DNA from: an uncultured virus (IMG/VR IMGVR_UViG_3300035424_000304)
Lineage: Duplodnaviria; Heunggongvirae; Uroviricota; Caudoviricetes
DNA length: 20,000 bases
IMG/VR virus record: IMGVR_UViG_3300035424_000304
Reading direction: 5' to 3' (one strand)
Shown: positions 2,026-18,987 of the stretch, piece by piece
How positions within the stretch are numbered: the first letter of the stretch is position 1
Layout of the letters: each line of letters starts with the position of its first letter
Notes under the pieces: generated by a model
Told to the model about the DNA's origin: nothing
The model's input: only the letters and a program-made list of their open reading frames with translations
Database searches by the model: none
Position numbers and translations under genes: made by a program

Positions 2026-2055
2026 ATTCTATGCGCATATCTCGGAAAATATCAA
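2026..2055 (-). promoter_or_regulatory. Shared promoter motif upstream of gyrB (TTGATA-N16-CATAGAAT)
   Basis: Minus strand reads TTGATATTTTCCGAGATATGCGCATAGAAT, about 33 nt upstream of the ATG. Confidence 0.7.
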
Positions 2056-2255
2056 AAATGCAGAAAACTTCCCCTTATTTTCACGCATCTCCACATTACG
2101 TTTGTTTTCGGGCTGCTCCTTCTGAACCTATATATCTTAACAAGAACCCTCCCAATGCAAGATCTTCACACAAAACCTTCTGTTATAATGCTGACTCATT
2201 GTATCACGGCTCCCTCAAAAAGACAAATGTTTTGTAAGTTCCGTTTTATTCCCCG

Positions 2256-2285
2256 TTGATAGTTTTCATTCCTTTTTCATACAAG
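2256..2285 (+). promoter_or_regulatory. Shared promoter motif upstream of ORF 2335 (TTGATA-N16-CATACAAG)
   Basis: TTGATAGTTTTCATTCCTTTTTCATACAAG, with the same 16-nt spacing as the other copies. Confidence 0.55.
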
Positions 2286-2334
2286 AAGATAACCTATCAC
2301 GAAAAGGCTGAATATGAACAGGAGGAAAGAAACT

Positions 2335-2739
2335 ATGAAAAAAAACTTGTGTTGGATGCAGTTCAAAAATGCGATGGAGCTGCAGAATCAAGCATCCCGC
2401 GCCAATCTTCGGTTAAAAAACAGCATCATTCGGGACCTGAAAAGCGTTATCCCGGAAAAGGAAAAGACAGACAGCTGCTGCGTGGTTGTCTCCCTCTCCG
2501 AAATTCGCGCTGTGCGATCGCTGTCCCCTTCCGACTATATGGTGAAGACACAGGTGGAGCTGATTACCGAAGCTCTTATGGGTTGCCGTTCGGCCGAGAA
2601 AATGCAGGCTGTTGTCCAGGAGCTGGTTAAGACCGGAACGATTTCCAATGGGAATCGAATTCTGCCTATCAGCAGTCCTGTCTGGTCTGTTCTTAGGCGA
2701 TATTCCAGACCCGAGACCCGTCCCACCAAAATTGGGTAA
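2335..2739 (+). CDS. Hypothetical protein, 134 aa
   Basis: RBS GGAGG lies ahead of ATG 2335. The ORF is preceded by the shared promoter motif and followed by a hairpin and terminator. Confidence 0.7.
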   Translation: MKKNLCWMQFKNAMELQNQASRANLRLKNSIIRDLKSVIPEKEKTDSCCVVVSLSEIRAVRSLSPSDYMVKTQVELITEALMGCRSAEKMQAVVQELVKTGTISNGNRILPISSPVWSVLRRYSRPETRPTKIG

Positions 2740-2817
2740 GTCTCCATCCCGGATTTGACTGTCCAACGGAAATGGGTCAGAGCCGGCATGAGCTGACTTG
2801 ACCTGGACGGTTCAATG

Positions 2818-2853
2818 AAAACGCAGGATTCACCCTCAGAGTCCTGCGTTTTT
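2818..2853 (+). terminator. Intrinsic terminator (possibly bidirectional)
   Basis: AAAACGCAGGA...TCCTGCGTTTTT. Confidence 0.75.
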
Positions 2854-2927
2854 ATAACTTTCTGGCATTCTGCATAAGAAGAAGCAAGGCAACAAAAGAA
2901 AGGTTATCAAAAAAGGTTAGAAATGGC

Positions 2928-2957
2928 TTGATATTTTCTCAAGATATTGCATAGTAT
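2928..2957 (+). promoter_or_regulatory. Shared promoter motif upstream of nrdD (TTGATA-N16-CATAGTAT)
   Basis: TTGATATTTTCTCAAGATATTGCATAGTAT. A weaker second copy lies at 2851-2880 (TTTATA-N16-CATAAGAA). Confidence 0.7.
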
Positions 2958-2984
2958 AGAGTCCGATTCCACTATATGTTGTAT
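2937..2984 (+). promoter_or_regulatory. Tandem NrdR boxes
   Basis: TCTCAAGATATTGCAT (2937-2952) and CCACTATATGTTGTAT (2969-2984) match the consensus acaCwAtATaTwGtgt. They start 32 bp apart, the canonical tandem spacing, and lie directly upstream of an RNR gene. Confidence 0.8.
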
Positions 2985-3033
2985 TCGTGTGAAAAATCAA
3001 GCTTCTCTTAAATTTGAAAGGAGTAAACTTATC

Positions 3034-5358
3034 ATGACTACCACTATTAAAACCCTGCGCAAGAGAGACGGACGCGACGTCGCCTTTGACCCCAAGAAAA
3101 TCGCCAATGCCATTAACAAAGCGTTTACCGCCACTGGCTTTGCTGATATGGAGAAGACGTCGGAAGCTTTGACCCAAATGGTCATCAATGTTATTGAGGC
3201 GGAAGGCGTAGCGACTCCCGAAGTGGAGCACATCCAGGACATCGTAGAAAAAGTCCTGATGGAGGAGGACTTCACCAAAACCGCCAAAGCGTACATCCTT
3301 TACCGCAACGAGCGCAGCAAGGCCCGCGAGATGAACACCCGGCTCATGAAGACTTATGAGGAGATCACCTTCTCCGATTCCATTGAGTCTGACGTCAAGC
3401 GGGAGAATGCCAACATAAACGGCGATACTGCTATGGGATCCATGCTCAAGTATGGCAGCGAGGGGTCCAAGCAGTTCTACCAGATGTTCGTTTTGAAGCC
3501 TGAACACGCTAAGGCACACCAGCAGGGCGACATCCACATCCACGATTTGGACTTCTACACCCTGACTACGACCTGTACCCAGATCGACATCAAGAAGCTG
3601 TTCAAGGGCGGCTTCTCCACCGGGCACGGCTTCCTGCGGGAGCCCAACGATATCGCCTCCTATTCCGCCCTGGCATGTATTGCCATTCAGTCCAATCAGA
3701 ATGACCAGCACGGCGGGCAGGCCATCGTCAACTTCGACTACGGCATGGCGGACGGCGTAAAGAAGACCTTCTGCAAGTTGTACACGCAGAATCTGGCGAA
3801 GATTCTGGCAATCTGGACTCAGGACGAGGATCTGGAAGAGGACCTGAAGGCCCTGCGGAAGCAAATTGAAGCCGAAACAGGGATCTATCCCCGGCTGGGC
3901 GACTCTCAGCCCTATATAAAAGAGGAATTGTCGCGCTTGGCAGGCCGCTACAACACAGAGCTGATTGTGGATGCACAACAGATGTCTCTGCGTTATGCCG
4001 AGAAGGAAACCGACCGGGCCACCTTCCAGGCCATGGAGGCATTCATCCACAATCTGAACACAATGCACAGTCGAGCCGGCGCTCAGACCCCCTTCTCTTC
4101 CATCAACTACGGCATGGATACCTCTCCGGAAGGCCGTATGGTCATGCGGAATCTGCTGCTGACCACCGAGGATGGTCTGGGTAACGGCGAAACCCCCATC
4201 TTCCCTATTCAGATTTTCCGGGTGAAGGAGGGTGTCAATTTTAACCCCAGCGATCCCAACTATGATCTTTTCAAGCTGGCCTGCCGGTGCAGCGCAAAGC
4301 GGCTGTTCCCCAATTTCGCTTTTGTTGATGCGCCGTTCAACCTCCAGTATTATGACCCCAAGCGTCCGGAAACGGAGATCGCTTACATGGGCTGCCGCAC
4401 CCGCGTTATTGGCAATGTTAACGATCCCTCCAGGGAGCAGTGCAACCAGCGGGGCAATCTCAGTTTCACTTCCATCAATCTTCCCCGGCTCGCTATTGAG
4501 GCGAAGGGCGACCTGAACGCCTTTTATGAGGGGTTGGATAAGATGATGAATCTCTGCATCGATCAGTTGAAGGAGAGATTTGAGATCCAGTGCCGGAAGC
4601 ATGTCTACAATTACCCCTTCCTCATGGGGCAGGGCGTATGGCTGGACAGCGAGAAGCTGAACTGGAACGACGAGGTGCGTGAAGTCCTCAAGCACGGCAC
4701 TTTGTCTGTCGGCTTCATCGGCCTGGCAGAGACCTTGGTTGCCTTGACCGGCAAGCATCACGCAGAGGATTCCGATTCACAGCGCCTTGGCCTGGAGATC
4801 ATTGGACGGATGAGAGCAAGAATGGAGGAGGAATGTGCAAAAACCGGACTGAACTTCTCCTTGCTGGCAACCCCCGCCGAGGGTCTGTCTGGGCGTTTTG
4901 TCAAGATTGACAGGAAGAACTATGGCGTTATTCCCGGGGTCACTGACAAGGAGTATTACACCAACAGCTTCCATGTTCCTGTTTACTACCCCATCAGCGC
5001 CTACGACAAGATTCAGCTGGAGGCCCCCTACCACGCTCTGACAAACGCTGGACACATCAGCTACATTGAGATGGATGGCGACCCCATGAAGAATTTGGAC
5101 GCCTTCGAGAAGGTAGTCAGATGCATGAAGGAGGCCGGTATCGGCTACGGAGCCATCAACCACCCTGTCGACCGCGATCCTTGCTGCGGGTATTCCGGCG
5201 TCATTGATGACGTCTGCCCGAAGTGTGGACGGCACGAGAGTGACAGGGGTCCGAAGTTTGAGCGCATCCGCAGAATCACCGGTTACCTGGTCGGCACTAT
5301 GGACCGTTGGAACAACGCCAAAACCGCCGAAGAGTCTGACCGTGTGAAGCACGTTTAA
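3034..5358 (+). CDS. nrdD: Anaerobic (class III) ribonucleoside-triphosphate reductase, 774 aa
   Basis: N-terminal ATP cone (KRDGRDVAFDPKKIANAI), HIHDLD, YMGCRT, GNLSFTSINLPR, TPAEGL, a C-terminal metal site (DPCCG...CPKCG) and the glycyl-radical motif RITGYL. RBS GAAAGGAG precedes ATG 3034. Confidence 0.97.
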   Translation: MTTTIKTLRKRDGRDVAFDPKKIANAINKAFTATGFADMEKTSEALTQMVINVIEAEGVATPEVEHIQDIVEKVLMEEDFTKTAKAYILYRNERSKAREMNTRLMKTYEEITFSDSIESDVKRENANINGDTAMGSMLKYGSEGSKQFYQMFVLKPEHAKAHQQGDIHIHDLDFYTLTTTCTQIDIKKLFKGGFSTGHGFLREPNDIASYSALACIAIQSNQNDQHGGQAIVNFDYGMADGVKKTFCKLYTQNLAKILAIWTQDEDLEEDLKALRKQIEAETGIYPRLGDSQPYIKEELSRLAGRYNTELIVDAQQMSLRYAEKETDRATFQAMEAFIHNLNTMHSRAGAQTPFSSINYGMDTSPEGRMVMRNLLLTTEDGLGNGETPIFPIQIFRVKEGVNFNPSDPNYDLFKLACRCSAKRLFPNFAFVDAPFNLQYYDPKRPETEIAYMGCRTRVIGNVNDPSREQCNQRGNLSFTSINLPRLAIEAKGDLNAFYEGLDKMMNLCIDQLKERFEIQCRKHVYNYPFLMGQGVWLDSEKLNWNDEVREVLKHGTLSVGFIGLAETLVALTGKHHAEDSDSQRLGLEIIGRMRARMEEECAKTGLNFSLLATPAEGLSGRFVKIDRKNYGVIPGVTDKEYYTNSFHVPVYYPISAYDKIQLEAPYHALTNAGHISYIEMDGDPMKNLDAFEKVVRCMKEAGIGYGAINHPVDRDPCCGYSGVIDDVCPKCGRHESDRGPKFERIRRITGYLVGTMDRWNNAKTAEESDRVKHV

Positions 5359-5369: not shown

Positions 5370-5411
5370 AGAGACGGGAGAGCGAATTTTTCGCCTCCCG
5401 CCTCTTTTTTT
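5370..5411 (+). terminator. Intrinsic terminator of nrdD
   Basis: AGAGACGGGAGAGCGAA...TTCGCCTCCCGCCTCT followed by a T run. Confidence 0.75.
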
Positions 5412-5507
5412 GATAATTTCCACACAAAATTTGTTTCTTTTTTTAGAGGAAATCATACATCGGAACAAAAAGTCTCTAAGATTTTAATTATTCTTTTCGG
5501 AATTTTT

Positions 5508-5537
5508 TCGATATTTTTCAATAAAAGTGCATATTTT
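5508..5537 (+). promoter_or_regulatory. Shared promoter motif (TCGATA-N16-CATATTTT)
   Basis: TCGATATTTTTCAATAAAAGTGCATATTTT upstream of the recombinase gene. Confidence 0.6.
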
Positions 5538-5574
5538 ATAATTTCCGTAGTTGTCCCGCCGGACATCCAAATTG

Positions 5575-5603
5575 TTGACACGAAGAAAGAAATGATTTAC
5601 TAT
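5575..5603 (+). promoter_or_regulatory. sigmaA-type promoter for the recombinase gene
   Basis: TTGACA-N17-TACTAT. Confidence 0.65.
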
Positions 5604-5662
5604 TTTTATTGAAAGTTTTTTTGATTTTTAACCGGACAAGCATATAGAAAGGAGGCGGCTAT

Positions 5663-6745
5663 GTGAAAGAAAGCAGAGAAGAAAGAGCCAGAAGATTTGA
5701 GGAGAGAATCAACGAACAATTTGATGATGTTGAGATAATCCCCTCCTATGCAGACCGTGGGATCTCCCTCATTCCAGAGAAAGAATTGGTTGGTGCATAT
5801 TGTCGCGTCTCCACTATGCAGGAAGCACAGGTAGACAGCTTCATTATGCAGAAGAAATATTATGAAGACTATGTAAAACAGAGAGAAGGCTGGGATCTGA
5901 TTGAAATCTATGCAGATGAAGGAATTTCCGCAACAAGCATCAAACGCAGAAAAGATTTTATTCGGATGCTAGACGATTGTAAGGCCGGCAGAATTACAAG
6001 AATCATCACAAAGTCCGTTTCCCGTTTTGGACGGAATGTGGTGGATACGATTGCAACCGTCCGAAGTCTCAGGAACCTCCCTACCCCTGTTGGTGTGTTT
6101 TTTGAAACGGAGAGAATTGACACTTTAAGAAGAGAAAGCGACATGCAGCTCTCCCTGCTGGCATCGTTTGCTGAGTCGGAATCAGTGACAAAGTCTGAGA
6201 GTATAAAATGGGGTATCCGCAATCGATTTGCAAGGAAAATCCCACGCATAGTTGATTTGTATGGCTTTGACCGAGATGGACTTGCTCTAACGATTAACCC
6301 AAATGAAGGCCCCATTGTTGCTCAGATGTACAAGATGCTTTTCGACGGATATTCCCCCTCCCAGATTGCAAAGCATCTAACCAGTTTGGAAATTCCTACC
6401 CCTGCAAAAATCGGAGACCGCTGGTTCCCTTCATCCGTCAAGTATATCCTTACAAATGAGCGAAATTGCGGCGATATCCTCATTCACAAAACTGTTACCG
6501 TAGACATTTTTACGCATAAGACCATCAAAAATACAGGGCAGGAACGTTCCTATCGCCTGAAAAATTACCATCAAGGAATTGTTTCCTATGATGAGTGGTT
6601 GTACGCCTGCGTCATCCTTGGTGAACTCCCTTTTGATACAATTCATCCTAAGGATGCTCCAGATTTTCTTATTGATGGAGTAGTCTATAAACAAATCGAT
6701 ATATCCGGCGCAAGGCTGCTGGATGAAGCACATGAAAGGATGTGA
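5663..6745 (+). CDS. Serine recombinase family protein (resolvase catalytic domain plus recombinase domain), 360 aa
   Basis: AYCRVST catalytic serine motif, IYADEGISAT, ITKSVSRFGRN, ASFAESESVTKSESIKWG, YGF, and ILTNERNCGD. RBS AAGGAGG precedes the GTG start. Confidence 0.92.
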   Translation: MKESREERARRFEERINEQFDDVEIIPSYADRGISLIPEKELVGAYCRVSTMQEAQVDSFIMQKKYYEDYVKQREGWDLIEIYADEGISATSIKRRKDFIRMLDDCKAGRITRIITKSVSRFGRNVVDTIATVRSLRNLPTPVGVFFETERIDTLRRESDMQLSLLASFAESESVTKSESIKWGIRNRFARKIPRIVDLYGFDRDGLALTINPNEGPIVAQMYKMLFDGYSPSQIAKHLTSLEIPTPAKIGDRWFPSSVKYILTNERNCGDILIHKTVTVDIFTHKTIKNTGQERSYRLKNYHQGIVSYDEWLYACVILGELPFDTIHPKDAPDFLIDGVVYKQIDISGARLLDEAHERM

Positions 6746-7334
6746 TTCTATCAATTATAATACGCCATTTTCTTTTGAAAATTTTAAAGTTATACCTCCC
6801 CCAACTTATGAAGTGTCTTTTTCCGAGATAAAAATTTCATCAAAAGCATTGTTTTTTAGTGCAACGACTGTATCCGAGCTTAGCTACGCTCAAGACATTG
6901 CAATCTTCTTCAGTGCCAATGATCGAATTTTGGTAATAACCCCCAGCGAAAAATCGGAATATACCAGCTCCTTTTTTGATCCAACTCAAACCAAGCGGAA
7001 CGTCACCCTCATACACGAGAAACTCACTTCTGCCATTCGCTCAATAATGGAGTGGCCTGCCCGAAAAGGCACCTACCGTATTCCTGGCGTCCGTGTGCCT
7101 AACTCCACTCAAACCCTACTCTGCTTTGACCTTAATCATGCCTCATGCGCAAAAAAGACAACAAAAAAAATCGACCCAATAGCATTTCTTTCTGCTTGTC
7201 CTACTTTGCAGGATTTGAACCGCCCACATAGCAACTATATTCCATATGCATTACCCGCAAGCGCTTCTATTCCCACAGATGATGAAAAACAGGATTCTGC
7301 GGTCACTATTATTGACATGAACGCCGCTTCGTGA
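6723..7334 (+). CDS. Hypothetical protein coupled to the recombinase gene, about 203 aa
   Basis: Overlaps the recombinase 3' end and the next ORF (GTGA). From memory it resembles accessory proteins found beside clostridial serine recombinases (FSFENFKV...ILVITP...IMEW...YRIPG). Confidence 0.7.
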   Translation: MKHMKGCDSINYNTPFSFENFKVIPPPTYEVSFSEIKISSKALFFSATTVSELSYAQDIAIFFSANDRILVITPSEKSEYTSSFFDPTQTKRNVTLIHEKLTSAIRSIMEWPARKGTYRIPGVRVPNSTQTLLCFDLNHASCAKKTTKKIDPIAFLSACPTLQDLNRPHSNYIPYALPASASIPTDDEKQDSAVTIIDMNAAS

Positions 7335-8125
7335 AAGAGAAGGTGCTGATGGGACGGAAATCCATACATTATCGTAATCCTTACCAATCAGAATTTGTTC
7401 AGAAATTAGATAGTCTTTGTACAATCAAGAGTCTCTGGCAGGTCTGGTCAGACTTTGTTGCAATGGCCTCCCTGTCCATTGCAAACGCATTAGACCGCAC
7501 AAGTAAAACTCATGATGTCAGAGAAGAAGAATATCTTGCTATTACGAGGGGCTATTCAACAGGGGAATTGACAACTTTTGCTGAACTGCTATCAATATTA
7601 GTTTTGGCTCTGGAAGAAAATCCGGAGCAGGATTTTCTGGGCGAACTATTTAGTAGCCTAAACCTGATGAGCCACTGGAAGGGTCAATTTTTTACTCCGT
7701 ACCACATAGGACGATTGATGTCAACAATTGGCATTGAACAGTGCAAGGAGGGCATCCTGGAAAACGGGTGGACAAGCATCACTGACCCATGTTGTGGTGC
7801 TGGCTCGCTACTGATTGCCATGCGAAATGAAATGGTCAGACAAGGATTTAATTCTCAACAGGCACTGTATGTGGCACAGGACATCGACCGGACAACAGCA
7901 ATGATGTGCTTTCTCCAGTTGTCTTTGCTGGGCTGTGCCGGATACGTGGTGGTGGGTAACTCCCTCACCCACCCCGTTGTCTCTTCCACAGGGTCCCCAC
8001 TCTTAATCGCCCCGTTGGAGGATCAGGAAGTCTGGATCATGCCAGCTTTATATGATAAAATATGGCACTGCAGAATGCAGTTTGAAAAACTCCGGTTACT
8101 CATTGAAGGGGAAACCCGCCGCTGA
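7331..8125 (+). CDS. Short N-6 DNA methylase-like (SAM-binding) protein, 264 aa
   Basis: HsdM-like motifs DFLGELF, GQFFTPY, DPCCGAGSLL (motif I), AQDID and GNSL are present. No NPPY/F motif IV is seen. Confidence 0.8.
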   Translation: MKEKVLMGRKSIHYRNPYQSEFVQKLDSLCTIKSLWQVWSDFVAMASLSIANALDRTSKTHDVREEEYLAITRGYSTGELTTFAELLSILVLALEENPEQDFLGELFSSLNLMSHWKGQFFTPYHIGRLMSTIGIEQCKEGILENGWTSITDPCCGAGSLLIAMRNEMVRQGFNSQQALYVAQDIDRTTAMMCFLQLSLLGCAGYVVVGNSLTHPVVSSTGSPLLIAPLEDQEVWIMPALYDKIWHCRMQFEKLRLLIEGETRR

Positions 8126-8293
8126 ACACGGTTTAGTAGAGCATGAAACGCTGTCCTGTTTATCGCTCCCTTTCAAACCTGGTTGATTTGTCTCAGTGCA
8201 TCTGGCAGGTCTGCAAACTATCAAAAGCAGAACTACATTATCTTACCTGATGCAAGTTACCTTTGGAATTAAGGAGAGGTAGGACGGTTAGAA

Positions 8294-8758
8294 ATGAGTA
8301 AAAAACAGATGTTTAGTAAAAAATTTGAACAGGACATAACAGGAACTGTCGAGATGACGGAGATCGATGGAATCGAGGAAGATGCCGTCCTTTGTTTCAC
8401 TGACATTGGTAAGTTTGGAATGCCTGCCAGCGAAAAGGAAGTTAAAACCTGCTATGGGGATCTGTACGTAATCATCAATGTCCTTAGAGATTATGCCAAT
8501 ATTCTGGAGCGGTTAATTTCGGAATGGAATCTAACAGGATATCGGTCTGGCTACTATGAAATGCATGCCATCAGATGTCGAAAAATCGCCGATAAGTATT
8601 CTGCTGCTATTGGCTATGATTATGATAAAGCTTTAGAGCGATGCCAAAAGCGGCGAGCGAAAGAAGGAACATCAAGGAAAACTGGCATGGATGGAATTGA
8701 AGCCCTGCTTCGAAGAGATAGCTCTTCCTCTGTCCAGGCAGAAAATAGAGACAAATAG
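8294..8758 (+). CDS. Hypothetical protein, 154 aa
   Basis: Purine-rich RBS region (AAGGAGAGGTAGGACGG) and a clean ORF ending before a bidirectional terminator. Confidence 0.7.
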   Translation: MSKKQMFSKKFEQDITGTVEMTEIDGIEEDAVLCFTDIGKFGMPASEKEVKTCYGDLYVIINVLRDYANILERLISEWNLTGYRSGYYEMHAIRCRKIADKYSAAIGYDYDKALERCQKRRAKEGTSRKTGMDGIEALLRRDSSSSVQAENRDK

Positions 8759-8830
8759 GGAGTCTGTTTGCTGCTCGGATGATTCTGATGACTCATTCAA
8801 ACACAGATGACCTCATCTGAATAGAATTGA

Positions 8831-8880: not shown

Positions 8881-10935
<2,055 letters not shown>

Positions 10936-10950
10936 TTAAAAGGTTGCCTG

Positions 10951-10980
10951 ATAATATGCGGTTCGTTTTGAAAATATCAA
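10951..10980 (-). promoter_or_regulatory. Shared promoter motif upstream of ligA (TTGATA-N16-CATATTAT)
   Basis: Minus strand reads TTGATATTTTCAAAACGAACCGCATATTAT. Confidence 0.7.
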
Positions 10981-11076
10981 AAAGGTATTCATTTGCTTTT
11001 TCTTGGGGAATTTTCGAAGGAAATGCGGGGCCGGCAGAGAGGCTCTGGCGGGGCTAAGATTATTTTCATGAGTCTT

Positions 11077-11106
11077 TCGATATTTTTTGTGGAAATCGCA
11101 TATCAA
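11077..11106 (+). promoter_or_regulatory. Shared promoter motif upstream of the small membrane ORF (TCGATA-N16-CATATCAA)
   Basis: TCGATATTTTTTGTGGAAATCGCATATCAA. Confidence 0.65.
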
Positions 11107-11156
11107 TAGGTGGCATATTTCCCATGTGTCAATTTTCAAAATAAGGAGGGGCTTTT

Positions 11157-11327
11157 GTGATCAAACGTATTGCTATTGCTATCATCGTTTTTCTCGTTGT
11201 GTTTCTGCTGGCAAGCGCCCTGGTTGGCGCCGATGTCATCTCAGCCACCTTTGGTCTGGTTCTTTGGCTGATTGGATTGGCTGCGGCGATTGGCGCATTT
11301 GTCAAGACGAAGCCGAGGGGCAACTAA
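11157..11327 (+). CDS. Small two-TM membrane protein, 56 aa (not in the ORF track)
   Basis: RBS AAGGAGG, then GTG: MIKRIAIAIIVFLVVFLLASALVGADVISATFGLVLWLIGLAAAIGAFVKTKPRGN. It has its own promoter motif and terminator. Confidence 0.8.
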   Translation: MIKRIAIAIIVFLVVFLLASALVGADVISATFGLVLWLIGLAAAIGAFVKTKPRGN

Positions 11328-11338
11328 CGATCGATGCA

Positions 11339-11367
11339 AGGGAGGGGGAACTGCCCCTCCCTCTTTA
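11339..11367 (+). terminator. Intrinsic terminator
   Basis: AGGGAGGGG...CCCCTCCCT-CTTTA. Confidence 0.65.
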
Positions 11368-11457
11368 TAGAAGGATTGGTGCGGAAATCCCCGGCTCATT
11401 ATCGATAGAGGCTGGCAGAGCGGGGCTAGAGAGGGCCGAAAATTTTCTCCAAATAAC

Positions 11458-11487
11458 TCGATATTTTTCGGAGGAAGCGCATAGTAT
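11458..11487 (+). promoter_or_regulatory. Shared promoter motif heading the tRNA-containing unit (TCGATA-N16-CATAGTAT)
   Basis: TCGATATTTTTCGGAGGAAGCGCATAGTAT. Confidence 0.7.
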
Positions 11488-11526
11488 ATGGATGAAAACA
11501 AACTGCCTGAAAGGAGAACTTCGCCC

Positions 11527-11715
11527 ATGAAAATTCAATCACTTTCTGTTGTCATCCCCAACGCAAGATGCATCAAGTTTGGGACAACCTCGTTTTGGAT
11601 ACAAAAACAAGATGATGGGAAGTTCCATTTTCAAATGGATAGTTCTGAGTCCCATCTGTCCAGAAAAGACTTAAAACTGCTTGTTTTAGAAATCGAGCAG
11701 GCGCTTTCTGAATGA
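11527..11715 (+). CDS. Hypothetical protein, 62 aa (possibly a chimeric remnant)
   Basis: RBS GAAAGGAG precedes ATG 11527. The protein begins MKIQSLSVVIPNARCIKFG. Confidence 0.6.
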   Translation: MKIQSLSVVIPNARCIKFGTTSFWIQKQDDGKFHFQMDSSESHLSRKDLKLLVLEIEQALSE

Positions 11716-11729
11716 ACCAGCAGCTAAAT

Positions 11730-11814
11730 GCGGGAGTGGCGGAATTGGCAGACGCACCGGATTTAAGTTCCGGCGCCATATGGTGTGAGGGTTCAAATCT
11801 CTTCTCCCGCACCA
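11730..11814 (+). tRNA. tRNA-Leu(TAA)
   Basis: Acceptor GCGGGAG/CTCCCGC-A-CCA, anticodon arm CCGGA-TTTAAGT-TCCGG, long variable arm, T loop TTCAAAT. Confidence 0.93.
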
Positions 11815-11846
11815 GCAGCTCTCGTATTCGATCTAAAAAATCATTT

Positions 11847-11937
11847 GCCAGTGTATCGTAGCGGAAACGAGGGTCAGAAATCCAGGATATCCAGTGGTAG
11901 ACCTGCGGTGCAAGTTCGACTCTTGCCACTGGCACCA
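11847..11937 (+). tRNA. Atypical tRNA-like gene with a 24-nt anticodon loop (anticodon undetermined)
   Basis: Perfect acceptor GCCAGTG/CACTGGC-A-CCA, D arm TCGT-AGCGGAA-ACGA and T arm GCAAG-TTCGACT-CTTGC. The stem GGGTC/GACCT encloses AGAAATCCAGGATATCCAGTGGTA. Confidence 0.75.
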
Positions 11938-11940
11938 AAT

Positions 11941-12016
11941 GCTCGTGTAACTCAGTTGGTAGAGTAGCGGCCTTTTAAGCCGTAAGTCGAGGGTTCGAAC
12001 CCCTCCATGGGCACCA
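11941..12016 (+). tRNA. tRNA-Lys(TTT)
   Basis: 76 nt. Acceptor GCTCGTG/CATGGGC-A-CCA, anticodon arm GCGGC-CTTTTAA-GCCGT, T arm GAGGG-TTCGAAC-CCCTC. Confidence 0.95.
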
Positions 12017-12020
12017 TTAT

Positions 12021-12108
12021 GGAGAGGTGTCCGAGCGGTCGATGGTGTCGGTCTTGAAAACCGACGAGCTGTAAGGCTCCGGGGGTTCGAATCCCTCCCT
12101 CTTCGCCA
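12021..12108 (+). tRNA. tRNA-Ser(TGA)
   Basis: Acceptor GGAGAGG/CCTCTTC-G-CCA, anticodon arm TCGGT-CTTGAAA-ACCGA, long variable arm GAGC..GCTC, G73 discriminator. Confidence 0.95.
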
Positions 12109-12109
12109 T

Positions 12110-12400
12110 TGTCTCCCCACGCTCTCGCTCAACCAAATAATCGGGACATTGCGGACATCATCATCCGCTGTTTCTGGAAGGCCCGCCCGGTGGCGTGGGT
12201 GGGGGCGTGGGAGACATACGCTGCATCCATTTGCAGGCTGGCATTTTTCGTAAGCATACGCTGCAGAGTGTGCGACCGGAATTTCCGTCTGTCGATTGGA
12301 TGCCAAAAGAGTACCCTATTTATACGGCGGGCCTGGCCCATGTGAAAAGCAAGCCAGGTGCATTTATGCAGGAGTGAAGTATAGTAGCGTAGTCCGTCGT
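12110..12400 (+). ncRNA. Candidate structured non-coding RNA(s), three domains, family unknown
   Basis: A 21-bp stem (12110-12131/12196-12216) with G-U pairs, a multi-stem junction at 12239-12305 and a multi-stem junction at 12324-12400. No ORF with an RBS is present. It begins immediately after the tRNA-Ser CCA. Confidence 0.6.
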
Positions 12401-12428
12401 TCTCTAAAAATATAAAGGAGATAATCAG

Positions 12429-12536
12429 ATGTTTTCAATCACACTCAATGGTATGGTCTATTCGTTCGAAGATGACCGTCTGATGGAAATCATGGATATG
12501 CTGGATGCTGCGGCAGACAAAGTCCGGGAAGAGTAA
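12429..12536 (+). CDS. Small acidic protein, 35 aa (not in the ORF track)
   Basis: RBS AAAGGAG, then MFSITLNGMVYSFEDDRLMEIMDMLDAAADKVREE. Confidence 0.6.
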   Translation: MFSITLNGMVYSFEDDRLMEIMDMLDAAADKVREE

Positions 12537-12548
12537 AACGAAGCTGTG

Positions 12549-12580
12549 GGGGCAGCGTAACCCGCTGCCCCTCCCCCTTT
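12549..12580 (+). terminator. GC-rich hairpin (weak terminator or processing stem) before the CAT tRNA
   Basis: GGGGCAGCG-TAACC-CGCTGCCCC followed by a pyrimidine run lacking a good U tract. Confidence 0.4.
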
Positions 12581-12590
12581 CCCAGAATCT

Positions 12591-12666
12591 GCTCCCTTAG
12601 CTCAGTTGGTAGAGCGGCTGCCTCATAAGCGGTTGGTCCTGGGTTCGATTCCCCGAGGGAGTACCA
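12591..12666 (+). tRNA. tRNA with CAT anticodon (elongator Met or Ile2)
   Basis: 76 nt. Acceptor GCTCCCT/AGGGAGT-A-CCA, anticodon arm GCTGC-CTCATAA-GCGGT. It lacks initiator features and has C4-G69 and C5-G68 as in Ile2. Confidence 0.9.
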
Positions 12667-12694
12667 AGAAATCAACAAAAACGAGGTATTTAGC

Positions 12695-13159
12695 ATGTTT
12701 TCAAGCAACCAAATTCTTGACATTTCCTGTGAGCAAAAAGACCTGAGCCGGGTCATAAAGTTTGCCGTGGGACTGGATGACGAAGATTTGTTTATCCGGC
12801 ACGATGGTCGTCTGAAAATGGCTTTTTCCGAACCAATCCCCGGCGTGTACGCTATTGGAAGAGGTTCGTTCCCTGGCTTCTCTGGCAGTTCTGTGCGGGG
12901 ACATTCGGCGGGAAAGGGTTGGGTGGATTACCCATTTGACTACGATCCTGACATCGTCGCAGGTATTATCAACCAGTGGATTCAAAAGCAGCCTGAGCCA
13001 AAACATACAGGAACCGATGGATCGGAGCATCTGGGGGTACGGGTGAGGTGCCTGGAGTCCATGGGCGACGACCTGCCGCACAGCTATGATTTACCAAATT
13101 GGGACTGGTTCAGCTGCATTCTGCTGTTTACCCCAATTCATATGGCATATCACAAGTAA
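12695..13159 (+). CDS. Hypothetical protein, 154 aa
   Basis: RBS GAGGT. Co-oriented ORF filling the gap between the tRNA and the coaB-like gene. Confidence 0.75.
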   Translation: MFSSNQILDISCEQKDLSRVIKFAVGLDDEDLFIRHDGRLKMAFSEPIPGVYAIGRGSFPGFSGSSVRGHSAGKGWVDYPFDYDPDIVAGIINQWIQKQPEPKHTGTDGSEHLGVRVRCLESMGDDLPHSYDLPNWDWFSCILLFTPIHMAYHK

Positions 13160-13183
13160 CCGATAAAAACGGAGGCGTAAAAT

Positions 13184-13945
13184 ATGAAGAAAAGGATTAT
13201 TATCACATCTGGTCCCACAAACGAGCAAATCGATGCAGTGATGAAAATCACGAACATGTCGACCGGAGCTCTGGGAAGCACGATAGCGGAGACCTTTCTG
13301 CGGGAGCGGAGTAAAAACATCGAAAAAGTCTACTACCTCTCCCCCAAACTCGCCCTGAAACCCCGCCTGACTTCTCCTCTGTTGGATTACATCACAGTCG
13401 AATCCACGCAGGATTTGCTGGACGAACTGACGCACCTTCTGACCACAGAGCGCATCGATGCTGTTGTGCATTCCGCCGCCGTGGGAGATTACAAGGCCAG
13501 CTACACTATCCGGGCGGAAGACCTCATTGATGAAATCATCCGGAAACAGGCGGAGGCCGGGGGTGTACTGGGGTACGACGAGCTTATGGAAATCTTCGAC
13601 AGTCCCGAGGCCGTGCAGAATGACAGTACAAAAATCTCCTCTTATGAGCCCCACCTGATGACAATGCTAACCTTGACCCCAAAGGTTATCAGCAGTATCA
13701 AGAAGCTCTCCCCCAGTACTACCCTGGTGGGTTTTAAACTTCTGGAGGGCATAGCGAGGGACGAACTTCTTAACGTCGCCTCCAGGCTACGTGAGAAGAA
13801 CCAGGCAGATTACATCATTGCTAATGACCTTTCCAAAATTGGCAACGGAAAACACTGGGCGATGGTTGTGGGAGCGTCTGGGGTCGAGACGGAGTGTGAG
13901 ACAAAGCAGGAAATTGCCGATGCAATCCTGGCCCGGATTTTCTGA
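13184..13945 (+). CDS. coaB: Phosphopantothenate-cysteine ligase-like protein (stand-alone CoaB/DFP C-terminal domain), 253 aa
   Basis: IIITSGPTNEQIDAVMKITNMSTGALG, VVHSAAVGDY, KISS, TPKVI, LVGFKL and IIANDL. RBS GGAGG. Confidence 0.9.
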   Translation: MKKRIIITSGPTNEQIDAVMKITNMSTGALGSTIAETFLRERSKNIEKVYYLSPKLALKPRLTSPLLDYITVESTQDLLDELTHLLTTERIDAVVHSAAVGDYKASYTIRAEDLIDEIIRKQAEAGGVLGYDELMEIFDSPEAVQNDSTKISSYEPHLMTMLTLTPKVISSIKKLSPSTTLVGFKLLEGIARDELLNVASRLREKNQADYIIANDLSKIGNGKHWAMVVGASGVETECETKQEIADAILARIF

Positions 13946-13986
13946 CAAAAAAATATGGCTTCCCGCATCGTATGGGAGCCATATAT

Positions 13987-14072
13987 GCCTTGGTAGCTCA
14001 GTAGGTAGAGCGCCGTAGGGAGTTGATCGCCCCTTCGGTATGTCGCCGGTTCGAGTCCGGCCCAGGGCACAA
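13987..14072 (+). tRNA. Atypical tRNA-like gene with an extended anticodon arm (+10 nt); ends ACAA rather than ACCA
   Basis: Acceptor GCCTTGG/CCAGGGC-A, D arm GCTC-AGTAGGTA-GAGC and T arm GCCGG-TTCGAGT-CCGGC. The anticodon arm is GCCGTAGGG-AGTTGATCGC-CCCTTCGGT. Confidence 0.75.
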
Positions 14073-14170
14073 TAAGCCCCGTATGACAATGGTCTTGGTC
14101 CATCTCACCAGTTGGCGAGGGCGGCTTGCAACGCAGCGGGGCATTAAAAAATATGAAAGGAGATGCCGCT

Positions 14171-14461
14171 ATGACAATCATGGACCTAGTCAACAAAAAG
14201 GAGCAGATTGACCGCATGTCAAAGCGTATTAGAGACACAATCGCAAAAACAGACAAAGGGTTCGAATCAATTAACAAATTCGAAAAATCTACCGATGAAG
14301 ACGGGAAAAAGGCCATCAACCTTGCCCGTATTTCGACGAATGAACTCATCATGGATCTGAATGAATGCCAGAAACAGCTTCGGGAATATTCCCTACTGCT
14401 TGATTCAGTCTTGCGGCAAACAAATATCACATGGCCTCCAAAATGCACTGCCCTGGAATGA
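14171..14461 (+). CDS. Hypothetical helical protein, 96 aa
   Basis: RBS GAAAGGAG precedes ATG 14171. Its stop overlaps the next start (ATGA). Confidence 0.7.
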   Translation: MTIMDLVNKKEQIDRMSKRIRDTIAKTDKGFESINKFEKSTDEDGKKAINLARISTNELIMDLNECQKQLREYSLLLDSVLRQTNITWPPKCTALE

Positions 14462-14883
14462 CCCCACCCCTCCCCCGCTCTTCTCTCCTGCCAGCCTATA
14501 TTGCTGAGGATAAGTTGTTCTTCTCCACCCGCCACCTTCAAAACCCTGCGCTTCTCATCCAACCCTCTCTTGATTTGCTGGTGGCGGTTGGTGAAACACC
14601 AGAAATGAGAAAAGCGAAAGCTCGGTTTGACGCTGTCGCTACCCCAGAAGATTCCCAGACAAATCCCCTCATTGTGGTTCCCCTTGGCCTGGAAACCCCA
14701 TATGGGCTAACACTGGAGCAAGCCGAGTATACAATTAACCGCATGAGTTCTGACCTAGATTCCCATTTCGTAACCAGATTCTTTGAACACTTATGTCTGG
14801 ATGCAGACATCCGCTTTTGGATCAACGAAAGGATGACGCAAGAGCCTAAATGGACATACACGGTTGAGCAATTATTGGGGTGA
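14458..14883 (+). CDS. Hypothetical protein, 141 aa
   Basis: ATGA translational coupling with the upstream ORF, followed by a terminator. Confidence 0.65.
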   Translation: MTPPLPRSSLLPAYIAEDKLFFSTRHLQNPALLIQPSLDLLVAVGETPEMRKAKARFDAVATPEDSQTNPLIVVPLGLETPYGLTLEQAEYTINRMSSDLDSHFVTRFFEHLCLDADIRFWINERMTQEPKWTYTVEQLLG

Positions 14884-14892
14884 CAAGAATTC

Positions 14893-14930
14893 AAAAAAAG
14901 GACTGGCAGTCTGAGCCAGTCCCTCTTTTT
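14893..14930 (+). terminator. Intrinsic terminator (bidirectional shape)
   Basis: AAAAAAAGGGACTGGC...GCCAGTCCCTCTTTTT. Confidence 0.85.
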
Positions 14931-14956
14931 GTTCATTACGCCAATTTCTCAGTCTA

Positions 14957-14985
14957 TTGTACTTGTTTATGGAGTATGGTATATT
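14957..14985 (+). promoter_or_regulatory. sigmaA-type promoter with extended -10
   Basis: TTGTAC-N17-TATATT, with TG two bases before the -10. Confidence 0.5.
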
Positions 14986-15043
14986 AGAAAAAAGCAGATT
15001 CTATTTGTTCTATCTGTCAACCTATGTTATGAGGAGTACCAAG

Positions 15044-15448
15044 ATGATAAACACACAACCAGAGGTATGCAATCTCTGCGGAGGAAAAGTTATCTATACA
15101 AGCAATGCACGCGTCTACCATGGTCGGGAATATGGCAGCGGCTATTGTTATTTATGTCTTGCTTGCGGTGCGTACGTTGGAACGCATAAGCCTCACCCTA
15201 AAGAAGCACTTGGGCTGCTGGCAGATGAACGTATGCGGAAAGGGAAAATCATGTGCCATGCTCTTTTTGACGCCATGTGGAAAGGGAAAAAGCACGAAAA
15301 GAGAGAACGGGATGCACTATATCGTTGGCTGGCTGAAGAAATGGCAATCCCGGTGGAAGACTGCCACTTCGGTTACTTCAATATCGAACAACTCAGGCAA
15401 GCATACCGCATACTCAAACGGCGTTCGGAACAGGATGGTATCATTTGA
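15044..15448 (+). CDS. DUF3268-like zinc-finger protein (phage-associated), 134 aa
   Basis: CNLCGG...YLCLACGAYVGTH...ALGLLAD...CHALFD.MW...R..LY.WLA..M.I....CHFGYF. RBS GAGGAG. Confidence 0.85.
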   Translation: MINTQPEVCNLCGGKVIYTSNARVYHGREYGSGYCYLCLACGAYVGTHKPHPKEALGLLADERMRKGKIMCHALFDAMWKGKKHEKRERDALYRWLAEEMAIPVEDCHFGYFNIEQLRQAYRILKRRSEQDGII

Positions 15449-15450
15449 CC

Positions 15451-15496
15451 AAAAAGAGCTGGGTGATAGACATACGTCTTCCCCAGCTCTTTTTTG
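15451..15496. terminator. Bidirectional terminator between convergent genes
   Basis: AAAAGAGCTGGG...CCCAGCTCTTTTTT. Confidence 0.85.
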
Positions 15497-15536
15497 CGCG
15501 GTTAGTCTTCCTTCCGGCAATGCTTTTGTGCGAAAC

Positions 15537-16325
15537 TCATTTTGCCTGTAGGATTTGCCAGGATTCAGATAGGGCTGTTAGGTATATAATTGGCAAGGCG
15601 TCATAGAACCGACTCCGCAGTTCTTGCTCGCTGACCCCTTCCTTCCGGGCAATAAACTCCTTCTCTTCCCCAGTTGTTCCTCTCGCCCGAAGCCGCTCAA
15701 AATACTCCGGATAATGAGCAACGACTTCGTTCCAGTCGTCTTCGCTGACCTGCGAACGGATGTCGGAATAACCCTTACTCTCCCACCATGCCGTAACTTC
15801 CTGAGCATACTTTTCCAGGGTTGGGAGGGATATCCAGCTTCTCTTTCCCACTCGCAATCGCTCAATAATGGCACTTGCAACAAGGTCTGTTGCCGTGATA
15901 TGTATGGTTTGGCCCTGGTTTTTGGAGGTCCCGGCATTAACGCCGACAGTCTCGTCCGGTGCAAAAGCAAGGACAATTGCTGGAGATGAGAGATTGTGAG
16001 TGGCTTGGAAAGGAGAAATGGGAACCACGCACATCTGCTTCAGCCTCCAACCAAGATTTTGAAGCTCCAACAGGTGTAAGTATAGGTCGGGATCCTTTGC
16101 TCCATAGATAAACTCCGCAATATTTTCTCTCTGAAGAATTTCTGAAACTTCCTTCCACTGATTTGCGATAAGCGGGTCTTTGAAAGTAAGAATTTCTGAG
16201 CCAATCTTCTGGGTGGAACGATAGGCTTTTGCGCAGTACCATTCTGGCTGACTATACCATTTCTGGGCGCTTCCATCGGAATTCTGCTGTCCAAACATTT
16301 TCTCAAACAATTCTACCGTTTTCAT
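15537..16325 (-). CDS. Hypothetical protein, 262 aa
   Basis: RBS AAAGGAGGT precedes the ATG, and the shared promoter motif lies upstream. Confidence 0.8.
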   Translation of the reverse strand: MKTVELFEKMFGQQNSDGSAQKWYSQPEWYCAKAYRSTQKIGSEILTFKDPLIANQWKEVSEILQRENIAEFIYGAKDPDLYLHLLELQNLGWRLKQMCVVPISPFQATHNLSSPAIVLAFAPDETVGVNAGTSKNQGQTIHITATDLVASAIIERLRVGKRSWISLPTLEKYAQEVTAWWESKGYSDIRSQVSEDDWNEVVAHYPEYFERLRARGTTGEEKEFIARKEGVSEQELRSRFYDALPIIYLTALSESWQILQAK

Positions 16326-16363
16326 AGTAACCTCCTTTAGGGTGTATCTGCTTATGATACCCC

Positions 16364-16393
16364 ATTATATACATTCCCTGTTAAAAATATCAA
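16364..16393 (-). promoter_or_regulatory. Shared promoter motif variant (TTGATA-N16-TATATAAT)
   Basis: Minus strand reads TTGATATTTTTAACAGGGAATGTATATAAT. Confidence 0.65.
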
Positions 16394-16415
16394 GGGGTTC
16401 GCACCTAATTCTTGC

Positions 16416-16458
16416 AAAAAAAGCCCCGCCTCTGGACAAATGCCTAGAAGCGGGGTTC
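16416..16458 (-). terminator. Terminator for the minus-strand ORF 16482-17450
   Basis: Minus strand AACCCCGC...GCGGGGC-TTTTTTT. Confidence 0.65.
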
Positions 16459-16481
16459 GCTATTACAAATTCCTTTGGTAT

Positions 16482-17450
16482 TTATTCTGCGTCACAACAA
16501 ATCCTTTTGAGCAGAGCGTATTTGTCTGCCAATGCCTGAATTTGTTCTCTGATATTTTCTTTCATCTCGTTCCATTCAGGAGATCCACAAGAGAACAAAT
16601 CAAACTCCTCATGACCCCAGAGCCAGAGTTCATCCAGTCCAGAGACACCTTGTCCCCAGTGCTGAATCAAAATGGGATAACCCATTATTTTGCGAAGGAA
16701 CCCCATATTGACGGATTGGTATTTGACGATTAGTCCATCGTTTGCGGATGTAAGCCCCTCTCGAAATTCGTATGACCCTCCACGAGGACGAAGGAAACTG
16801 TTAAGATCTCTAAATAAACAATGGTATTTCACCGTTAGAGACAGTTCCCAGAACCAATCCATGTTTTCGGACACTTTCCAGGTAACAATCAATCCTGTCG
16901 GAGAGGCAAAAATTTCGATTCCAGGATTAACGATAGGCAGCCCGAAGGGGTCCTTTTCCTCCGTTGGAAAGAATCTCCTTCCACAGTATTCAAACCCTAT
17001 GAACCGGAGAATCGCCCGGCGGATATTAGATGACATACGGCAGGGAGAATTAAACCTGGATAAAAACGAGTTTTCATTCTGAACAAACCGAATCCAAACA
17101 TCGTTTGCTACATGTCGATCAAAACGCCCCGCTTCGGAAATTGCATACCGGTCTACGCCTTCTGCTGTTGCGCCTTCTACATCTGTTCGCTGTCCCTCCG
17201 GACGGTACTGGTTCCAATCAACTCTACTTAAATCGATTTTCTGCCAGCCATAATAATTCGCATTGAGGCTACGAGAAAAATTCGCAGGAAGGCTGCATGT
17301 GAGGGAGTGTCCGTCAACAAAAAACTCATGGCAAAAATAAAATCTGCTATCAGAAATTTCATCTCTTGACAACTTGGGCAGGCCGGGGTTTGTAACCACG
17401 ACCTCAATGATACGTTCGCCAATTTCTCTATTTCGATTATCCCTTATCAC
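16482..17450 (-). CDS. Hypothetical protein, 322 aa
   Basis: RBS AAGGAG precedes GTG. Long ORF in AT-rich DNA with no recognised motif. Confidence 0.75.
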   Translation of the reverse strand: MIRDNRNREIGERIIEVVVTNPGLPKLSRDEISDSRFYFCHEFFVDGHSLTCSLPANFSRSLNANYYGWQKIDLSRVDWNQYRPEGQRTDVEGATAEGVDRYAISEAGRFDRHVANDVWIRFVQNENSFLSRFNSPCRMSSNIRRAILRFIGFEYCGRRFFPTEEKDPFGLPIVNPGIEIFASPTGLIVTWKVSENMDWFWELSLTVKYHCLFRDLNSFLRPRGGSYEFREGLTSANDGLIVKYQSVNMGFLRKIMGYPILIQHWGQGVSGLDELWLWGHEEFDLFSCGSPEWNEMKENIREQIQALADKYALLKRICCDAE

Positions 17451-17518
17451 TTTTATACTCCTTCTCCGGAAATCTCCGGCTCAAAATCTTGTACTGTAAG
17501 AGCTTTTATTTGCTCAAT

Positions 17519-17821
17519 TTAAGAACAAACCTCCACAATGATTTCCGCAAGGCTCTGGGAGGAATTGATATCTCCTCCCTTTCCATGCAATAATCCCAGC
17601 AAAGTCTCATCGCCTGAATCTCGCAATTCGCAGTAATACGTCCACCCATCATCTTCTTTTTCGAAGCTAATATCCAGTTCCATATCCTGATCAACGACAT
17701 AGGTAACGATACGGTTATCAAATCCGGATGGGCGTGCGCCGGTTCCATCCCACTGGGTGGGGTTCATTTTTTGAAGGTGGATTTCTGCAATCTCCAGGGC
17801 TCTTTTTTGATCTATACTCAT
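17519..17821 (-). CDS. Hypothetical acidic protein, 100 aa
   Basis: RBS AAAAGGAG upstream, with the shared promoter motif at 17869-17898. Confidence 0.7.
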   Translation of the reverse strand: MSIDQKRALEIAEIHLQKMNPTQWDGTGARPSGFDNRIVTYVVDQDMELDISFEKEDDGWTYYCELRDSGDETLLGLLHGKGGDINSSQSLAEIIVEVCS

Positions 17822-17868
17822 AATTTCATTTTCTCCTTTTTATTCTATCCTGTGTGTCAGGCTTGCTC

Positions 17869-17898
17869 ATATTATGCCAAAACCACCTTTTTTATCAA
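17869..17898 (-). promoter_or_regulatory. Shared promoter motif (TTGATA-N16-CATAATAT)
   Basis: Minus strand reads TTGATAAAAAAGGTGGTTTTGGCATAATAT. Confidence 0.6.
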
Positions 17899-18079
17899 AT
17901 CAATCAGCTGAAACTATTCTTAAAGAGATGTTCATTTCATCCTCACAACTTTAACAAAGCTATTTTGTAACCACAACGGGCGGCGCAAATATTGAGACGG
18001 TCCGCAAATATATTCAGTCCCAAGGCGAAGAAAAACCAAAGCGAAAATATACGAAAAAGGCCCCCTTGCAGGCCCATTA

Positions 18080-18125
18080 GGCGATTCATCCCCGACCGAC
18101 TTTCGTCGGTTGGGGTTTTCTCGCC
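18080..18125. mobile_element. Orphan palindrome resembling an IS200/IS605-family end
   Basis: GGCGA-TTCAT-CCCCGACCGAC-TTTC-GTCGGTTGGGG-TTTTC-TCGCC. No tnpA/tnpB is nearby. Confidence 0.5.
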
Positions 18126-18164
18126 ATGGGAGGATAAATCTCCTGTCTTTAGTCATGGGGCTTA

Positions 18165-18194
18165 TTTATAGTTTCAAGACCTATTGCATAGTAT
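18165..18194 (+). promoter_or_regulatory. Shared promoter motif (TTTATA-N16-CATAGTAT)
   Basis: TTTATAGTTTCAAGACCTATTGCATAGTAT upstream of ORF 18254. Confidence 0.6.
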
Positions 18195-18985: not shown

Positions 18986-18987
18986 AC

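Follow-up and report, generated by a model that had tools for sequence, protein, structure and literature searches.

The window analysed here is a 20,000-nucleotide (nt) stretch of DNA assigned to an uncultured virus of the Caudoviricetes (IMG/VR record IMGVR_UViG_3300035424_000304). It encodes a GyrB/ParE-like topoisomerase subunit, the ribonucleotide reductase NrdD, a serine recombinase, an N6 methyltransferase, the DNA ligase LigA, a CoaB-like protein, a DUF3268 protein and, at the right end, a DUF3848/DUF3849 protein. Four transfer RNA (tRNA) genes, one odd tRNA-like gene and many open reading frames (ORFs) without a family are also present. Eleven copies of a bipartite motif are distributed over this DNA. 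They are promoter-like and, as a preliminary description of the sequence had proposed, head nearly every transcription unit of the window. Comparison with the promoters of related bacteria tentatively suggests that they form a class of their own, read by a sigma factor of the element.

Alignment of the eleven copies gave the consensus ttTtGATAtTTTt-N11-tGCATAnTAt, whose two parts are referred to below as the -35 and -10 boxes. An exact scan for TYKATA-N16-CATA found 10 matches against 0.07 expected (standard deviation 0.25), and 0 of 200 shuffles reached 10. The eleventh site, at 16364-16393(-), has TATA in place of CATA. The positions of the copies, as given earlier, were confirmed, and the motif is in excess over shuffled DNA. 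The spacing between the boxes is 16 nt in 11/11 copies, and TYKATA followed by CATA after N15 or N17 has no match in the window. The shorter core ATA-N16-CATA matches 10 times, each time at a known motif site; other spacings give a few scattered matches (N14, 4; N15, 3; N17, 2; N18, 3). Scored with a weight matrix built from the eleven sites, the copies range from 21.2 to 37.6; the two highest values elsewhere in the window are 15.6 and 14.0. The finer features that had been described also hold: G precedes CATA in 10/11 copies, T occupies the four positions after ATA in 7, 9, 10, and 10 of the 11, and T is found at the eighth position of the -10 box in 8/11.

All of the copies are intergenic, although intergenic DNA makes up only 18.8% of the window. 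Every copy is aimed at a gene start, as had been noted; the starts lie 32-150 nt downstream of the box in the same direction (11/11), and most have a Shine-Dalgarno sequence. The sites are arranged as three divergent pairs and one tandem pair, and a terminator-like hairpin of the preceding unit lies upstream of three of them (2851, 16393, and 18165). On the basis of this placement, orientation and arrangement, the anatomy of the eleven sites is that of promoters, as far as sequence can tell. The copies are listed in the table.

Table. Copies of the bipartite motif in the window, with boxes (-35..-10), weight-matrix score and downstream gene
Copy	Position	Strand	Boxes	Score	Downstream gene or unit	Remarks
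1	2026..2055	-	TTGATATTTT..GCGCATAGAAT	36.0	GyrB/ParE-like topoisomerase gene, start codon 1993	
2	2256..2285	+	TTGATAGTTTT..TTCATACAAG	25.7	134-aa ORF, start 2335	weaker; divergent from copy 1
3	2851..2880	+	TTTATAACTTT..TGCATAAGAA	26.3	nrdD	upstream member of tandem pair
4	2928..2957	+	TTGATATTTT..TGCATAGTAT	34.0	nrdD, start 3031	nrdD-proximal
5	5508..5537	+	TCGATATTTTT..TGCATATTTT	34.0	serine recombinase gene (5663)	125 nt before gene
6	10951..10980	-	TTGATATTTT..CGCATATTAT	37.6	ligA, start 10902	best copy; LigA by Pfam
7	11077..11106	+	TCGATATTTTT..CGCATATCAA	32.6	56-aa hydrophobic ORF, GTG 11157	divergent from copy 6
8	11458..11487	+	TCGATATTTTT..GCGCATAGTAT	35.3	long + strand unit to about 15448	
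9	16364..16393	-	TTGATATTTTT..TGTATATAAT	28.2	orf15537, start 16325	TATA variant
10	17869..17898	-	TTGATAAAAAA..GGCATAATAT	21.2	orf17519 and orf16482	without T-run; weakest copy
11	18165..18194	+	TTTATAGTTT..TGCATAGTAT	31.9	ORF from 18254	divergent from copy 10

Pfam matches support the GyrB/ParE-like identity of the gene behind copy 1 and that of NrdD (E=1e-204); the 134-aa ORF behind copy 2 has no Pfam match. The transcripts from copies 1 and 6 are predicted to start near 2019 and 10944, respectively. A hairpin plus T-run lies directly upstream of copy 3, copy 9 begins 23 nt beyond the terminator of the upstream unit, and copy 11 lies 50 nt past the terminator-like hairpin at 18090-18115. 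Copy 9 also fits the sigma70 hexamers at 11/12 with an 18-nt spacer. Between copy 5 and the recombinase gene there is a canonical TTGACA-17-TACTAT at 5575-5603. The unit behind copy 8 contains, in order, a small ORF (11527), the tRNA genes for Leu, Lys, Ser and Met, orf12695, the CoaB-like gene, the odd tRNA gene, three ORFs and the DUF3268 gene. No further motif copy and no strong sigma70-like site lies ahead of its internal genes. The two divergent units behind copies 10 and 11 have a common leader element, CCTGACA-N5-8-AGAATAAAA, at 17838-17861(-) and 18203-18223(+). It begins about at the predicted transcript 5' ends and, judging by its sequence, could serve as an operator common to both units or act as an RNA element.

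The DNA carrying the motif has few close relatives. Among 185,579 species genomes searched, the closest topoisomerase is 78% identical and belongs to the Oscillospiraceae; the gene order of the window was shared by none of the 80 topoisomerase loci compared. Topoisomerase relatives from protein-based scans were chromosomal orthologues only. LigA has at most 53% identity to any of 401 genomes of the family. The largest ORF of no known family has 6 homologue clusters only among 5.8 billion proteins, none of them from NCBI genomes. For orf16482, no match was found in viral contigs, and the best score in the ESM Atlas (0.82) is below a level also reached by shuffled proteins. An exact 51-mer of the window was absent from the genome and viral collections searched, and megablast of the window against phages and plasmids gave nothing. 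The region 9000-18900 is present word for word in mouse-gut metagenomes from numerous studies. Structural and conjugation genes were not found in the window. Since the sequence is exact in mouse-gut metagenomes, yet none of the compared loci shares its gene order, the window probably belongs to a mobile element, plasmid or phage-like, that is unbinned and comes from mouse-gut Clostridia of the Oscillospiraceae type. The DNA thus behaves as the element it had been taken for, and not as the chromosome of any catalogued species. Two candidates recorded as plasmids, Pusillibacter pMM59_01 and Monoglobus 'plasmid 18', were rejected as relatives; core genes are present in them and they are chromosome-like. 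The viral contig L081 was also rejected, as it looks chromosomal and has REP-like repeats around its gyrase genes.

The right end of the window is different. The DUF3848/DUF3849 gene and its upstream region form a separately mobile, ICE-like module that is widely shared and in which the motif was not found. This module (18975-20000) is 92-99% identical to 12 metagenome contigs of otherwise unrelated DNA. The metagenome scan used one 60-mer from the window end, which lies inside the module, and therefore the 12 contigs match only 18975-20000.

The conserved bipartite motif is confined to the element, with 11 copies in 16 kb and no cluster in the 401 family genomes. In those genomes TYGATATTTT-N11-GCATA has 23 matches, in 21/401 genomes, against 1 for the reversed control. 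There are at most 2 per genome, and several represent one conserved coding sequence. Within 1.26 Mb around orthologous topoisomerase genes, 5 loose matches were found, none with the T-run or GCATA, and there was no excess of the 16-nt spacing. Homologous gyrB/nrdD fragments and the contigs sharing the right-hand module contain no motif copy. The viral contigs scanned with the motif have single copies only, among the matches listed. Three intergenic look-alikes occur in other Oscillospiraceae genomes, at G359:C53:3058, G226:C60:323 and G039:C4:123307 (matrix scores 30.2, 28.2, and 19.8). They are single copies without homology to the window, and one sits between SprT-like and Rep-like genes of a small integrated element.

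In a reading only a little less likely than the one preferred below, host sigmaA would use the sites as promoters with a common design (TTGATA, 18-nt spacer, TAnTAT), perhaps spread as a cassette or aided by an accessory protein. In that case, the additional conserved letters would be an accessory-factor site or inherited by descent. Read as sigmaA promoters, 11/11 copies have an 18-nt spacer and a -35 box of the TTGATA type (TTGATA, TCGATA or TTTATA), and 10/11 have GCA before the -10 box. The T of TTG is present in 11/11 and the G in 9/11; A at -11, the second position of the -10 box, is present in 11/11, A at -8 in 10/11, T at -7 in 8/11, and TAnnnT in 8/11. The copies can therefore be read as sigmaA hexamers, and a sigma70 scan accepts 6/11 of them at 9-11 of 12 with the 18-nt spacer. 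The genes behind them serve replication, nucleotide supply and translation by tRNA, which are needed during growth.

Chromosomal promoters of the topoisomerase give further support to sigmaA. A sigmaA-like site of at least 10/12 was found at 51/72 orthologous loci, and ATA-N16-CATA within 200 nt of the gene at 0/72. The spacer is 18 nt in 23/67 best sites. TTGACA-17/18-TAnAAT occurs at a distance from the start codon like that of copy 1, and some relatives have TTGACA-18-TAGAAT or TAAAAT where the window has TTGATA-18-TAGAAT. At nrdD, an NrdR-operator-like sequence lies at 2973-2988(+), between the proximal putative promoter (2928) and the start codon. It fits 13/16 of the NrdR consensus acaCwAtATaTwGtgt. 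In the homologous nrdD fragment L227, two NrdR-like boxes surround a canonical TTGACA-17-TATAAT, so the arrangement is like that at a canonical sigmaA promoter. The nrdD gene itself, at 3031-5358(+), has no adjacent nrdG activase gene within the window, and the recombinase island follows next downstream.

The habits of sigmaA promoters in the family are different. Strong sigmaA-like sites in 1.58 Mb of family chromosomes have spacers of 17 nt (97 sites), 16 nt (17), 18 nt (21) or 19 nt (7), so that the 18-nt spacer found in every window copy accounts for about 15% of them. Of the 97 with 17 nt, 63 have TTGACA as the -35 box, 29 have TTGAAA and 1 has TTGATA. TGn stands before the -10 box in 30 of these 97 and GCA in 1, whereas TGn is found at one window copy only (17898, 16-nt alignment). 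The 17-nt spacer, the frequent TGn and the TTGACA or TTGAAA box are thus not habits of the window copies. About 12 bits of conservation lie outside the sigmaA contacts, namely T at position 5 of the -35 box, the T-run, and GCA at -15 to -13. We know of no role of the conserved T-run in sigmaA recognition. In addition, the inter-box spacers of the eleven copies show no sequence relationship to one another, and simple recent duplication therefore fails to explain the shared boxes.

Control by host sporulation sigma factors, sigmaE or sigmaK, had been suggested from the similarity of the motif to sigmaE promoters. The family has sporulation machinery, since SpoIVA was found in 86/101 Oscillospiraceae genomes searched. 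Classical sigmaE targets in B. subtilis are spoIVA, spoIIID and spoIIIAA. Upstream of these genes in the Oscillospiraceae, ATA-N16-CATA was found at 21/30, 13/20, and 10/24 loci, respectively. These 44 host sites lie 47-98 nt upstream of where the matched domain begins (spoIVA, spoIIID) or where the protein is estimated to start (spoIIIAA); spoIIIAA has 4 further sites with N15. The resulting family pattern of sigmaE type is g-k-C-ATA-w-t, 16 nt between ATA and CATA, then CATA-G/T-n-n-T. The spoIVA sites have a conserved spacer, GGCTTATCCC, which from its sequence may be the site of a second regulator. SpoIID was uninformative as a sigmaE marker; its loci are dominated by a long paralogue of ~560 aa.

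The similarity to sigmaE promoters stood in part. The core is the same, with ATA in 11/11 window copies, CATA in 10/11 and one TATA, at the 16-nt spacing of the 44 host sites. The ATAtt extension after the -35 core is common to both sets, and whole -10 strings at spoIIID, GCATAGTAT and GCATATAGT, equal window copies. The flank of the -35 box did not agree. G precedes ATA in 9/11 window copies and in 0/44 host sites (Fisher p=8.6e-9; as only three orthologous promoter groups supplied the host sites, these counts overstate independence). The host-preferred C has the reverse distribution (0/11 against 32/44). T three bases before ATA is found in 11/11 window copies and 12/44 host sites, and A at -8 in 10/11 and 12/44. 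With a matrix built from the host sigmaE sites, the listed window copies score 3.8-14.9, and the host sites themselves 9.3-23.1 (leave-one-out). This matrix ranks 8/11 copies among the top 13 window places and 9/11 among the top 30, leaving two copies outside. About 5 bits of conservation, plus the G absent from host sites, fall at positions that host sigmaE ignores.

Host mother-cell sigmaE, acting alone or together with sigmaA, is thus an unlikely reader. Under such control, the replication and tRNA genes would be expressed in the mother cell during sporulation, where mobile elements are known to excise (PMC4191935, PMC5025042). The genes driven are not sporulation genes, and the NrdR-type operator suggests growth-linked control, which argues against sigmaE. 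As a specific claim, host sigmaE control is not supported by the -35 flank. SigmaK was rejected. In C. difficile, the -35 box is reported to be ATA for sigmaE and AC for sigmaK, with mother-cell -10 boxes CATATTAT and CATATAAT (PMC3789822); in the window, the aligned positions are AT or TA in 11/11 copies, and AC does not occur at the needed place, 16-17 nt upstream of CATAnnnTA. The forespore sigmaF/sigmaG type was also rejected. By eye, several of 15 upstream regions of small acid-soluble spore protein (SASP) genes show GAATAT, ~17-18 nt, and aGAATA or nnATA, without a CATA box.

The motif is a hybrid, as far as its letters can show, of sigmaA-like features (TTG, TAnnAT with A at -8) and sigmaE-like features (ATAttt, CATA, rigid spacing). 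T at position 5 of the -35 box and G before CATA are peculiar to it. The simplest single agent would be one sigma factor reading all of this hybrid pattern. The best reading, to be held tentatively, is that the copies are promoters for a sigma factor which the element itself encodes, the other option raised earlier. The eleven copies would be one class of bipartite sigma-70-type promoter of an uncharacterised mobile element (a large plasmid or phage-like), read most likely by RNA polymerase with a sigma factor encoded elsewhere on that element. Recognition of the -10 box (GCATAnTAT) would resemble that of the mother-cell sporulation sigma factors, and the -35 box would be recognised as TTGATATTT at a fixed 16 nt from it. 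The topoisomerase, ribonucleotide reductase, ligase, tRNA and accessory units of the element would be activated jointly, as by SigN on pBS32 (see below). The invariant spacing and placement of the copies, their confinement to this DNA and the departures from the sigmaA and sigmaE promoters of the host family all count for such a factor, and homologues of sporulation-type sigma factors have been reported in gut phages (PMC10294663).

Several observations weigh against a sigma factor of the element. A search of the window proteins for sigma70-family members, as had been proposed, found none, even among profile matches up to E 5. The six copies that pass as sigmaA promoters and the 18-nt chromosomal topoisomerase promoters described above point to the host enzyme. 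The isolated look-alikes lie in family genomes in which the element was not seen, and a host-encoded factor fits them. The ends of RNA-run contigs, described next, also belong here.

The window sequence occurs in RNA-library contigs of four mouse-gut studies. Four such runs were used, as contigs only, and contigs cannot show transcript starts. Their occurrence weakly favours sigmaA-type expression during growth, as DNA carry-over is possible. The contigs of run X15 span every motif site, which makes DNA carry-over likely in this run; X15 also has alternative joins at 18090-18130. The contigs of run X19 span 17869-17898, 2026-2055 and 16364-16393. Three X19 contig ends carry Illumina adapter letters (12704, 16403, and 18166), and their orientations agree with those of the neighbouring genes, provided that the first read is sense. 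Two of these ends lie 10 nt upstream of a -35 box (16403) and inside a -35 box (18166), not downstream of the -10 box. If they are native 5' ends, they sit where promoters are not predicted to start transcripts. The long listed contigs of X17 and X18 cross no motif copy and were not counted as evidence.

A reading in which the element ties its replication, nucleotide and tRNA module to a mother-cell-type polymerase is quite improbable. The polymerase would contain host sigmaE or a sigmaE-like factor of the element, which would replicate in the discarded mother cell, and the superimposed TTG would keep basal sigmaA expression. It is very improbable that the motif is no promoter at all and instead an operator for a DNA-binding protein or a 5' untranslated leader element with the true promoters upstream, as the X19 ends and the direct repeat of GATA and CATA 20 nt apart (about two helical turns) might suggest, because no conserved promoter-like sequence lies upstream of the eleven copies, several copies directly follow terminators, a good TAnnAT box lies at the right distance from a TTG-type box, and the contigs cannot place starts.

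For the sigma factor of the element preferred here, the closest known system is SigN (ZpdN) of the B. subtilis plasmid pBS32. It is described as having a plasmid-restricted regulon, including DNA gyrase and nucleotide-synthesis operons, with one conserved bipartite promoter (PMC6751061). Similarly, the topoisomerase and NrdD genes here are headed by one conserved bipartite motif. However, the reported SigN sites are ATTTACGTTT..AGATATAA (PMC6751061), and the window has TTGATATTTT..GCATAnTAT. The host would be a gut anaerobe of the Clostridium class and not a Bacillus, and the window has no sigma gene. In the phage SPO1, a switch from sigmaA to phage sigma factors has been described (PMC13401047). 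With the SPO1 middle and late promoters (gp28, gp33/34), the present case would share displacement of the host sigma factor and one consensus for DNA-metabolism genes, whereas structural genes of a phage are absent from the window. The SPO1 middle and late promoter consensus sequences differ from the window motif.

The motif has features of both host promoter types. Like the sigmaE promoters of B. subtilis, C. difficile and the Oscillospiraceae, it has ATA, 16 nt to CATA, T at the eighth -10 position, ATAtt and rigid spacing. Unlike them, it has mostly G before ATA, where C, A or T stands in 44/44 host sites. Conservation of T at -3 and of A at -8 is peculiar to the window, and non-sporulation genes are driven. 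Like canonical sigmaA promoters, it has a TTG-type -35 box, a TAnnAT -10 box, A/T-rich upstream DNA and a location 30-70 nt before start codons. Unlike canonical sigmaA promoters (TTGACA-17-TATAAT, often with TGn), it always has an 18-nt spacer and a TTGATA-type box, with GCA for TGn and a T-run. Mobile elements often carry their own promoter class. The present finding is thus of a known kind, a mobile-element-specific promoter class, and is a clear case but not a surprising one.

Several other features of the element were recorded. The region 5400-8800 is an island of lower G+C (42-46%). It contains a short serine recombinase gene (360 aa), an overlapping 203-aa ORF, an N6 adenine methyltransferase gene (phrog_5696) and a 154-aa ORF. 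With its own promoter at 5575-5603, it is probably an insertion within the element. The tRNA set at 11730-12666(+) comprises Leu-TAA, Lys-TTT, Ser-TGA and Met-CAT, three of which read codons ending in A or G. This set is in keeping with an element of 49% G+C whose hosts, like the closest topoisomerase relatives, have 56-64% G+C. At 13184-13945(+), the same unit also encodes a CoaB-like protein that stands alone and is unusual cargo (Pfam DFP C-terminal domain, E=1e-26). The odd tRNA-like gene at 13987-14070(+) scores 48.5 bits with the Rfam tRNA model, and ARAGORN assigns it a four-base anticodon, 'tgat'. Its anticodon arm is much extended in the fold. Candidate readings of this model are a tRNA that carries an insertion, one of the frameshift-suppressor type, and a gene in decay.

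Should the motif be read by a dedicated factor, its consensus would provide a handle for the remaining regulon of the element and for the sigma gene. It would also offer orthogonal expression parts for gut Clostridia, which are hard to manipulate genetically. As a by-product, the comparison yielded sequence-derived promoter patterns of the sigmaE, sigmaA and forespore types for the Oscillospiraceae. The link to sporulation, if true, would mean that a mobile element times its replication to the mother cell, and would represent a sporulation-tied life strategy in gut Clostridia.

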